Source of the DNA: a virus | Virus record (IMG/VR): IMGVR_UViG_3300027825_000082 | Direction: 5' to 3' (one strand) | DNA length: 15,631 bases | Shown here: one piece after another, positions 9,596 to 10,399 of the stretch | Layout: each line of letters opens with the position of its first letter | How positions within the stretch are numbered: the first letter of the stretch is position 1 | The notes under the pieces: model-generated | What the model saw: the letters and a program-made list of their open reading frames with translations, nothing else | Databases searched by the model: none | What the model was told of the DNA's origin: nothing | Made by a program: the position numbers and the translations under genes

Positions 9596-10399
9596 CTACT
9601 TCTTCAGGTCGTACACGGGCGTCGCGTTGCCGTTGATGAACGTGCAGCTCCCGGCCTTCGCGCACGCCTGCTCCTGCATCTTGATGCGCTCCAGCTCGAT
9701 GAACTGCTCGGGGCTGAGGTGCATCTCCTCGCGGTAAGCGTTGTCCGCGTTGGCGCGGGACTGCTCCGCCTGGAGCCGCTGGTCCTCGGCCTTCTTGCGC
9801 TGCTGCTCCGTCTGGATGCGCTGCTCCTGCACGGCCGTGTCGACGCGCTGCGTCTTGATGGCGTCGGGCGGGTTCGCCTTGCCCACGGTCATCGTCACGA
9901 GCTGCACTGGGAGCTGCTTCTGCTTGAGGAAGTCCACGACCTGGCCCCTGATCTCCTCGTCGATCGCGTCCAGCGCGGTGGAGGAGATGACGGTCTCGTT
10001 CATGCCGTGCTTGCGGACGGCCTGGCGCACCATGGTCTTGAACTGCTCCTCAAGGTTGTTCTCGTACCACTTGGGGCCGAAGTTCGCGATCAGCTTCACG
10101 GAGTCCGTGACCTGGAGGATCATGATGGCGTGGAAGGTGATCGGCACGCCGTCCGAGGTCATGAAGTCGGGCAGCTCGGTCTCGTACTTCTGCGGCTGCA
10201 TGTAGACGTCCTCCGTCGAGGTCGTGAGCGCGATGAAGGTGCGCCCGGTCTTGACGGGCTCCGGGTCCACGCCGCCGTGCCCGAAGAACACGGGCTTCTC
10301 CACGAGCACGATCTCGTGGCCAGCGTCGGGGGTTGCCGACGAGCAGGCGGTCATCAGTGCGATTGCTGCCAGCGCGAACATCAGTGCGATGCGTTTCAT
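9596..10399 (-). CDS. SPFH/band-7 (stomatin-prohibitin-flotillin-HflK/C) domain lipoprotein (267 aa)
   Basis: Signal peptide MKRIALMFALAAIALMTAC with a lipobox-like LMTAC; the core ITFHAIMILQV ... VQLVTMTVGKANPPDAIKTQRVDTAVQEQRIQTEQQRKKAEDQR is a typical SPFH domain plus coiled coil. Confidence 0.75.
   Translation of the reverse strand: MKRIALMFALAAIALMTACSSATPDAGHEIVLVEKPVFFGHGGVDPEPVKTGRTFIALTTSTEDVYMQPQKYETELPDFMTSDGVPITFHAIMILQVTDSVKLIANFGPKWYENNLEEQFKTMVRQAVRKHGMNETVISSTALDAIDEEIRGQVVDFLKQKQLPVQLVTMTVGKANPPDAIKTQRVDTAVQEQRIQTEQQRKKAEDQRLQAEQSRANADNAYREEMHLSPEQFIELERIKMQEQACAKAGSCTFINGNATPVYDLKK

Follow-up and report, generated by a model that had tools for sequence, protein, structure and literature searches.

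The stretch of 15,631 nucleotides analysed here, which we call the window, belongs to the IMG/VR virus record IMGVR_UViG_3300027825_000082 and carries on its minus strand a gene for a lipoprotein of the SPFH/Band-7 type (9596..10399, 267 amino acids, ATG at 10399, TAG at 9596-9598). Its upstream neighbour, separated by a gap of 78 nucleotides and encoded on the same strand, is a homologue of the major vault protein (MVP) with 813 amino acids (10478..12919; MVP_shoulder E 1.6e-25, Vault_3 E 1.9e-9). The gap contains a GC-rich hairpin with a U-rich tail (10420..10450, minus strand), behind which the SPFH gene has its ribosome-binding site, AGGA. Downstream, 2 nucleotides separate the SPFH stop codon from the start of the next open reading frame (ORF). 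MVPs of viruses have been described before (bioRxiv 10.1101/2023.11.10.566534), and we found 4376 MVP homologues, many of which are labelled major vault protein by the source databases. An earlier note on this DNA had proposed that the two adjacent genes form a functional pair, with the SPFH protein acting as membrane tether or scaffold for a vault-like assembly. Our analysis shows instead that the SPFH gene is accessory and mobile, that it has no conserved partner and that no promoter-like site lies between it and the MVP gene.

The SPFH lipoprotein

The Pfam search suggested by the earlier note gave a match of Band_7 (PF01145) to residues 38-205 (9785..10288, minus strand) with an E-value of 9.6e-18 and 65.3 bits, above the Pfam gathering cutoff of 23.6. 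The phrog_200 profile, named 'lipoprotein', aligned residues 1-241 with profile positions 81-331 of 379 (E 1.3e-21). By these profile matches the protein is assigned to the SPFH superfamily and to PHROG 200, a catalogued family. Many of the 1840 homologues detected are 70-84% identical. A chance ORF at 9596-10399 is excluded because the GC content at third codon positions is coding-like (GC3 = 0.96) and the ratio of nonsynonymous to synonymous divergence (dN/dS) is ~ 0.32 against the related locus L014; the ORF appears to be a functional gene under purifying selection. The identical protein is encoded by an intact ORF on 5 metagenome contigs from 4 samples, and the mean column identity in an alignment of 20 homologues amounts to 81%, lipobox and C-terminal cysteine pair included.

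The N-terminus MKRIALMFALAAIALMTAC conforms to the PROSITE PS51257-type rule, which combines a charged n-region, a hydrophobic h-region and a lipobox of the form [LIVM..][..][AGS]C within the first 35 residues: two Lys or Arg residues among the first 7 are followed by a hydrophobic core and Cys19. The predicted signal peptide with its lipobox comprises residues 1-19 (LMTA-Cys19; 10343..10399, minus strand), where MKRIALMFALAAIALMTA precedes Cys19, the predicted lipidation site. This stretch is the sole hydrophobic segment of the protein. The lipobox Cys is present in 100 of the 111 family sequences examined, while 6 others carry an uncleaved hydrophobic N-terminal anchor instead. In the sequences examined, Asp never occupies the +2 position, directly behind the predicted lipidation site. 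By the sorting rule of E. coli, a residue other than Asp at this position would direct gammaproteobacterial members of the family to the outer membrane; because some members carry a transmembrane anchor, an inner-membrane location can be argued for the family. Near the C-terminus, Cys246 and Cys252 (9644..9664, minus strand) probably form a periplasmic disulfide. Neither varies in the alignment of 20 sequences, and almost every viral homologue has them. The combined pattern of lipobox and Cys pair indicates that the bulk of the protein would reside in the oxidising periplasm, in an orientation like that of HflK/C.

A search of the PDB with a sequence profile of the protein returned nothing at E ≤ 0.01, after which the fold was compared with Foldseek. 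An AlphaFold2 (AF2) model built from 20 homologues shows an alpha/beta SPFH core corresponding to the Band_7 match, with a model confidence (pLDDT) of 70-90, a 48-residue helix at residues 178-225 and a second helix at residues 229-246. These long C-terminal helices (9662..9868, minus strand) correspond in the model to the coiled-coil 'wall' element of SPFH proteins. The 33 best-scoring PDB structures in Foldseek all belong to SPFH proteins, namely prohibitin, stomatin, HflK/C, erlin and flotillin, with E-values from 1e-6 to 1e-3, and the alignments span ~ 200 residues against full-length cage-forming SPFH proteins. By analogy, the lipoprotein probably forms a stomatin/HflKC-like ring on a periplasm-facing membrane. 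The earlier description of a lipid-anchored SPFH protein with signal peptide, lipobox and helical tail directly after MVP is thus borne out by Pfam, PHROG, the lipobox pattern and AF2 alike.

More specific identities were considered and rejected. In the NCBIfam scan no HflK or HflC model matched the protein, and the only match was FloT with E 0.009 and 15 bits against a cutoff of 700; the PADLOC defence profiles gave marginal matches only (E 8e-4 and 4e-3, 14-16 bits). Together with the PDB profile search and the scans of neighbouring genes described below, these results led us to reject an HflK/C orthologue, a member of a stomatin-NfeD operon and a known defence protein. An origin by duplication of the MVP shoulder domain was rejected as well. 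Band_7 also matches residues 539-675 of MVP (E 4e-4), in the SPFH-like shoulder domain, but the BLASTP match between the two proteins has an E-value of 0.023 and 23% identity, compared with 58-84% identity to stand-alone homologues.

The junction behind the vault gene

MVP loci were gathered from IMG/VR, JGI metagenomes, GenBank phages and protein-index contigs, and each was searched with all proteins of the window. The relatives comprise IMG/VR viral contigs of 41-317 kb and the published huge phages LR756500 and LR756501 (462-kb and 735-kb genomes). An intact MVP-SPFH pair was present in 2 of ~ 18 MVP-phage lineages examined: the clade of the window (L010-L013 and L096, in essence one phage recovered from four samples) and L014, in which MVP is 90% and SPFH (974-1783) is 84% identical to the window. 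No IMG/VR contig was common to the lists of MVP and SPFH matches. In 15 lineages, SPFH was absent downstream of MVP in the inspected flanks. The SPFH-less loci cover a wide range of MVP identity to the window: 79% (L099, L112), 76% (L004, L097, L098, L100), 75% (L101 and, as a separate lineage, L141), 74% (L102), 71% (L142), 69% (L106), 68% (L143), 67% (L108), 62% (two lineages, one of L005, L008 and L103, the other of L006, L007 and L104), 58% (L144) and 45% (L145), and 41% in each of the huge phages LR756500 and LR756501. The closest distinct relative of the window, L140, has an MVP of 94% identity, and its SPFH gene is cut to an in-frame remnant of 33 codons, in which MKRIAL is fused to KMQEQAC...DLKK. 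The remnant (L140:6017-6118) matches positions 9596-9682 and 10382-10399 of the window, so that a segment of 699 nucleotides or 233 codons is missing (residues 7-239; 9683..10381, minus strand). Because this remnant lies beside an MVP gene 94% identical to that of the window, the SPFH gene can evidently be lost while MVP is kept. The conservation of the gene pair in relatives, which the earlier note had named as a check of its proposal, was therefore not found: the pair is intact in the window clade and L014, reduced to a remnant in L140 and absent in the 15 other lineages.

The hairpin tells a similar story. At 10427-10450, folding gives a GC-rich stem of 10 bp with the tail UUUCUGUU. Although a simple terminator scan did not flag it, 7 relatives carry it in the corresponding position behind MVP; 93.7% of the cells are paired, and 4 of 9 pairs show double compensatory changes. 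The terminator that had been placed between the two genes is accordingly real by both folding and covariation. Hairpin and AGGA ribosome-binding site occur in MVP relatives both with and without SPFH, and the hairpin belongs to MVP, not to SPFH. Equivalents after the MVP stop codon were seen in L004, L014, L099, L101, L102 and L106, with the next ribosome-binding site and ATG following within ~ 6-25 nucleotides. As a terminator or attenuator of MVP, the hairpin suggests an arrangement that sets high expression of MVP and lower expression downstream.

The compartments of the two products are predicted to differ as well. Neither a signal peptide nor a transmembrane segment was found in MVP, whose maximum Kyte-Doolittle score over 19 residues is 0.98. 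Lacking both, MVP is expected to stay in the cytoplasm. As the lipoprotein is predicted to be exported and MVP has no export signal, direct tethering of one by the other is unlikely.

Comparison of the loci reveals a conserved backbone in this lineage, in the order small upstream gene (homologue of 12969-13232), MVP, hairpin, membrane ORF with three segments (homologue of 9103-9363) and RlaP. What follows the hairpin varies: the small membrane ORF comes at once in L099 and L101, SPFH intervenes in L014, and SPFH plus an ORF of 79 amino acids intervene in the window. Among close relatives (MVP 67-79%), the membrane ORF and/or RlaP follow the hairpin in L099, L112, L004, L097, L098, L100, L101, L102, L106 and L108, and in more distant relatives unrelated genes follow MVP. 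In the window and L014, SPFH hence separates genes that are direct neighbours in relatives such as L099 and L101, as is typical of a moron, an accessory gene cassette of phages. L102 is instructive in this respect, for its slot holds an unrelated ORF of 59 amino acids with two hydrophobic segments (L102:2394-2573, compared with L101:6440-6490), although the two loci are otherwise near-identical. Because this membrane ORF occupies the exact SPFH slot, the junction after the MVP hairpin is a hot spot for small envelope-protein genes. On our reading, the adjacency to MVP is a by-product of SPFH having entered a slot of variable content. Between the window and L014, synonymous divergence (dS) is 0.38 for SPFH and 0.17 for the flanking MVP C-terminus and RlaP. 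The doubled value for SPFH hints at exchange or replacement of alleles, or at independent acquisition, at the slot.

The remaining genes around the slot differ in their conservation. The ORF of 79 amino acids (9354..9593, minus strand) has no family match and follows SPFH only in the window clade; a homologue also follows the SPFH remnant in L140, and it is absent from L014. It represents a second presence/absence polymorphism in the slot. The small membrane protein (9103..9363, minus strand) has 86 amino acids and ~ 3 hydrophobic segments, and its homologue stands directly after the MVP hairpin in several relatives, e.g. L099 and L101. RlaP ('RNA repair pathway DNA polymerase beta family') is a nucleotidyltransferase (8114..9079, minus strand; start uncertain, ORF open to 9271; Pfam RlaP E 1.5e-17, phrog_388 E 4.8e-43) and a conserved downstream neighbour of MVP, usually preceded by the small membrane ORF. 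It was found in this position in the window, L004, L097-L102, L106, L108, L112, L014, L142 and L143; the adjacency is absent in relatives with an MVP identity of 62% or less. The MVP-RlaP adjacency might hint at a function of the phage vault protein that involves RNA.

The window as a whole is part of a large, tRNA-rich phage genome. Its genes lie nearly all on one strand and are mostly short, overlapping ORFs without family matches; when 20 neighbouring ORFs were compared with PHROG and Pfam, almost nothing matched besides RlaP and HNH endonuclease ORFs. One HNH ORF (704-1267) interrupts an array of 16 tRNA genes (20-3019, minus strand; Gln, Arg x5, Lys x2, Asn x3, Gly, His x2, Trp and others) of a kind typical of large lytic phages. 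SPFH genes adjoin tRNA clusters in the phages Siara and DLP_3, too. A megablast search of the whole window against GenBank phages gave no match. The source of the window phage is soil or peat metagenomes.

The SPFH family beyond vault phages

The distribution of the SPFH family outside MVP phages is broad. A pattern scan of genome contigs with the single protein returned nothing, and a scan based on an alignment, with each species represented by a single genome, identified the family in 74 bacterial species with 58-80% identity (mostly 65-74%). The hosts, soil and peat bacteria, belong to the Acidobacteriota (Terriglobia, Bryobacterales) and the Gammaproteobacteria, chiefly Steroidobacteraceae. 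Contigs with these chromosomal copies (L019-L092) reach complete chromosomes of 4.9 Mb, and the copies occupy unrelated positions. At none of the 74 bacterial loci was MVP or another window gene present, and no neighbour family recurred in more than 6 loci. According to a Pfam scan of 84 flanking proteins, the neighbours belong to diverse housekeeping families, e.g. IF-2, acyl-CoA dehydrogenases and KdpA; NfeD, FtsH, integrase and phage families were not among the 25 most frequent of the 111 Pfam families found. Likewise, 27 IMG/VR contigs with a GC content of 33-67% carry the SPFH family with no MVP within 6 kb and no common neighbour gene. Altogether, neither the 74 bacterial nor the 32 other viral SPFH loci include an MVP gene. 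On one of the IMG/VR contigs (L119:3632-4525), which lacks MVP, a RlaP homologue of 35% identity lies ~ 1.5 kb upstream of SPFH.

Among isolated phages, the family is encoded by Tunturiibacter phage Tunturi_3 (53% identity), the Stenotrophomonas phages DLP_3, DLP_5, Siara and others, Xanthomonas phages and the Pseudomonas jumbo phage PaBG, where the gene sits among early and replication genes without MVP. The PHROG 200 proteins of these phages (Tunturi_3 gp133, DLP_3, DLP_5, Siara, Xanthomonas phage X1 and PaBG gp287) share 30-53% identity over 82-92% of the length (mostly at least 85%) with the window protein. They resemble it in size, lipobox (in PaBG a transmembrane anchor), SPFH core, C-terminal Cys pair and stand-alone position, and differ in having no MVP nearby. 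Homologues of 29-37% identity were also found on megaplasmids of 290-970 kb from Vibrio, Photobacterium and Pseudomonas (NZ_AP019851.1, NZ_CP031226.1 and others). The window protein is closer to the chromosomal copies of soil bacteria than to any copy from an isolated phage.

In a neighbour-joining tree, the copies of isolated phages branch deep, whereas the window, L014 and L015 group together and have as their sister group a shallow clade of bacterial copies from both phyla, mixed with one another. Because the tree interleaves two bacterial phyla and places phage copies as their sister, the SPFH gene is horizontally mobile. The interleaved chromosomal copies imply recent transfer of a single stand-alone gene across phyla. 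We did not adopt a simple capture from host to phage, as the phage copies are basal or sister to the shallow bacterial clade.

Explanations for the locus

We propose, with a probability of about 0.7, that the SPFH lipoprotein is a mobile, lineage-specific accessory envelope gene product encoded behind the MVP hairpin and independent of a cytoplasmic MVP shell. The gene would be transcribed by read-through of the hairpin and hence at a lower level than MVP. Its product would be exported by Sec and lipidated at Cys19, and the C-terminal Cys pair would be oxidised in the periplasm. The protein may then assemble into a homo-oligomeric ring or dome on the periplasm-facing leaflet, like stomatin, HflK/C and prohibitin, and such a ring might fence off or stabilise a patch of the envelope of the infected cell. 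The blocking of competing elements or the maintenance of envelope integrity would be the most likely pay-offs.

Several named systems resemble parts of this scheme. T5 Llp and TraT are small exported exclusion lipoproteins that mobile elements carry as accessory genes and that act at the envelope; they are functional analogues only and have no relationship in sequence or fold with the SPFH protein. Stomatin and QmcA-YbbJ share with it the length of ~ 270 residues, the SPFH core, a helix of ~ 50 residues and a short C-terminal tail, and stomatin is among the top folds. Both stomatin and QmcA face the cytoplasm, whereas the window protein is predicted to be exported, and no NfeD gene lies among its window neighbours. 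A precedent for an envelope-located, phage-borne SPFH protein, likened here by description, is the HflK/C-like protein PM0222 (Pmorf0222) from a prophage island of Pasteurella multocida, for which secretion in outer-membrane vesicles and signalling via TLR1/2 have been reported (PMC9872710); its role is in the virulence of an animal pathogen, in contrast to the soil or peat phage considered here. SPFH proteins have been annotated in phages several times, with the function stated as unknown (PMC7760394, PMC4936722, PMC3220722), and our literature search for a demonstrated function returned only statements of this kind.

HflK and HflC, which form an SPFH cage that regulates FtsH in E. coli, deserve separate consideration. 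HflKC modulates lambda CII, and a periplasmic SPFH ring of the phage could similarly cage host FtsH or another membrane protease and alter the turnover of phage or host proteins. The window protein shares with HflK/HflC the N-terminal membrane anchor, the periplasmic bulk and an SPFH domain followed by a long helix. HflK/C-FtsH complexes (7wi3, 9cz2) are among its structural matches, some homologues are named 'regulator of protease activity HflC', and the PaBG copy is annotated as an FtsH regulator. These names are generic COG labels, however, and prohibitin and stomatin score equal to or above HflK/C. The window protein has a predicted lipid anchor instead of a transmembrane helix, its helical region is much shorter, and it matches neither HflK nor HflC in NCBIfam, where the weak match to FloT is the only one. 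It is encoded by a single gene and not by a heteromeric pair; no second SPFH gene or ftsH was found beside it in the neighbourhoods examined, and no ftsH or protease gene recurs among the 84 bacterial neighbours. We consider such a protease regulator improbable. A function in the virion or in the timing of lysis, e.g. with holins or spanins, might be suspected from the small membrane ORFs that adjoin SPFH and from the detection of SPFH-domain proteins by mass spectrometry in particles of Erwinia jumbo phages (PMC7760394). Around the gene, both in the window and in annotated phages, we recognised replication or early genes and tRNAs but no gene for lysis or virion structure, and the stand-alone chromosomal copies in bacteria count against a virion role; we regard this possibility as very unlikely.

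That the gene is a neutral passenger or a decaying gene without a role in infection would fit the in-frame deletion in L140, the patchy presence among relatives and the elevated dS against L014. Such a gene would hardly remain intact and identical on 5 contigs, keep its lipobox and Cys pair at 81% mean column identity, show a dN/dS of ~ 0.3 and match the phage in GC3, so that neutrality seems highly improbable, if slightly less so than a virion or lysis function. The least probable of the alternatives is, in our judgement, the functional pair of MVP and SPFH. The two genes are adjacent, co-oriented and probably co-transcribed by read-through, L014 has kept them together, and the MVP shoulder is itself SPFH-like, as seen in its Band_7 match and the weak BLASTP match to the lipoprotein. 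Against these points stand the co-occurrence in only 2 of ~ 18 lineages with the deletion in L140, the occurrence of the SPFH family without MVP at more than 100 loci, a hairpin that is independent of SPFH and the different compartments predicted for the two proteins. By gene distribution, the pair is refuted for the most part already.

The proposal of an accessory envelope gene has its own weak points. For most MVP contigs, the inspected flanks extended 3.5-10 kb to each side, and a distant SPFH copy could escape detection. The pair is kept in two related lineages, which is compatible with a local, lineage-specific interaction. The AF2 model is moderate, with a mean pLDDT of 65, and residues 17-65 are poorly modelled. 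Finally, a scan of 9000-13300 for sigma-70-like promoters found none, but the promoters of the host may not follow this consensus.

The other roles that the earlier note had mentioned, membrane remodelling or superinfection exclusion, may apply to the SPFH protein acting alone. In a bolder form of the accessory-gene proposal, which we think rather unlikely although less so than protease regulation, the family would act as an 'envelope shield' of mobile elements: a periplasmic, lipid-anchored SPFH cage would cap a receptor, a DNA-entry channel or a protease and thereby exclude phages or plasmids, and the chromosomal copies would be domesticated genes spread across phyla by these elements. This idea is compatible with the data because of the exported topology, the occurrence on three kinds of replicon, the absence of a fixed partner, the frequent gain and loss and the interleaving of phyla in the tree.

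For work on viral vaults, the SPFH gene should not serve as evidence for membrane-tethered phage MVP shells. The conserved neighbours of phage MVP in this lineage, namely the terminator hairpin, the small membrane ORF and the RlaP-type nucleotidyltransferase, are better leads. The SPFH gene points to a strongly conserved family of exported SPFH lipoproteins that shuttles among phages, megaplasmids and bacterial chromosomes (Acidobacteriota, Gammaproteobacteria) and offers a tractable target for the role of a periplasm-facing SPFH ring.

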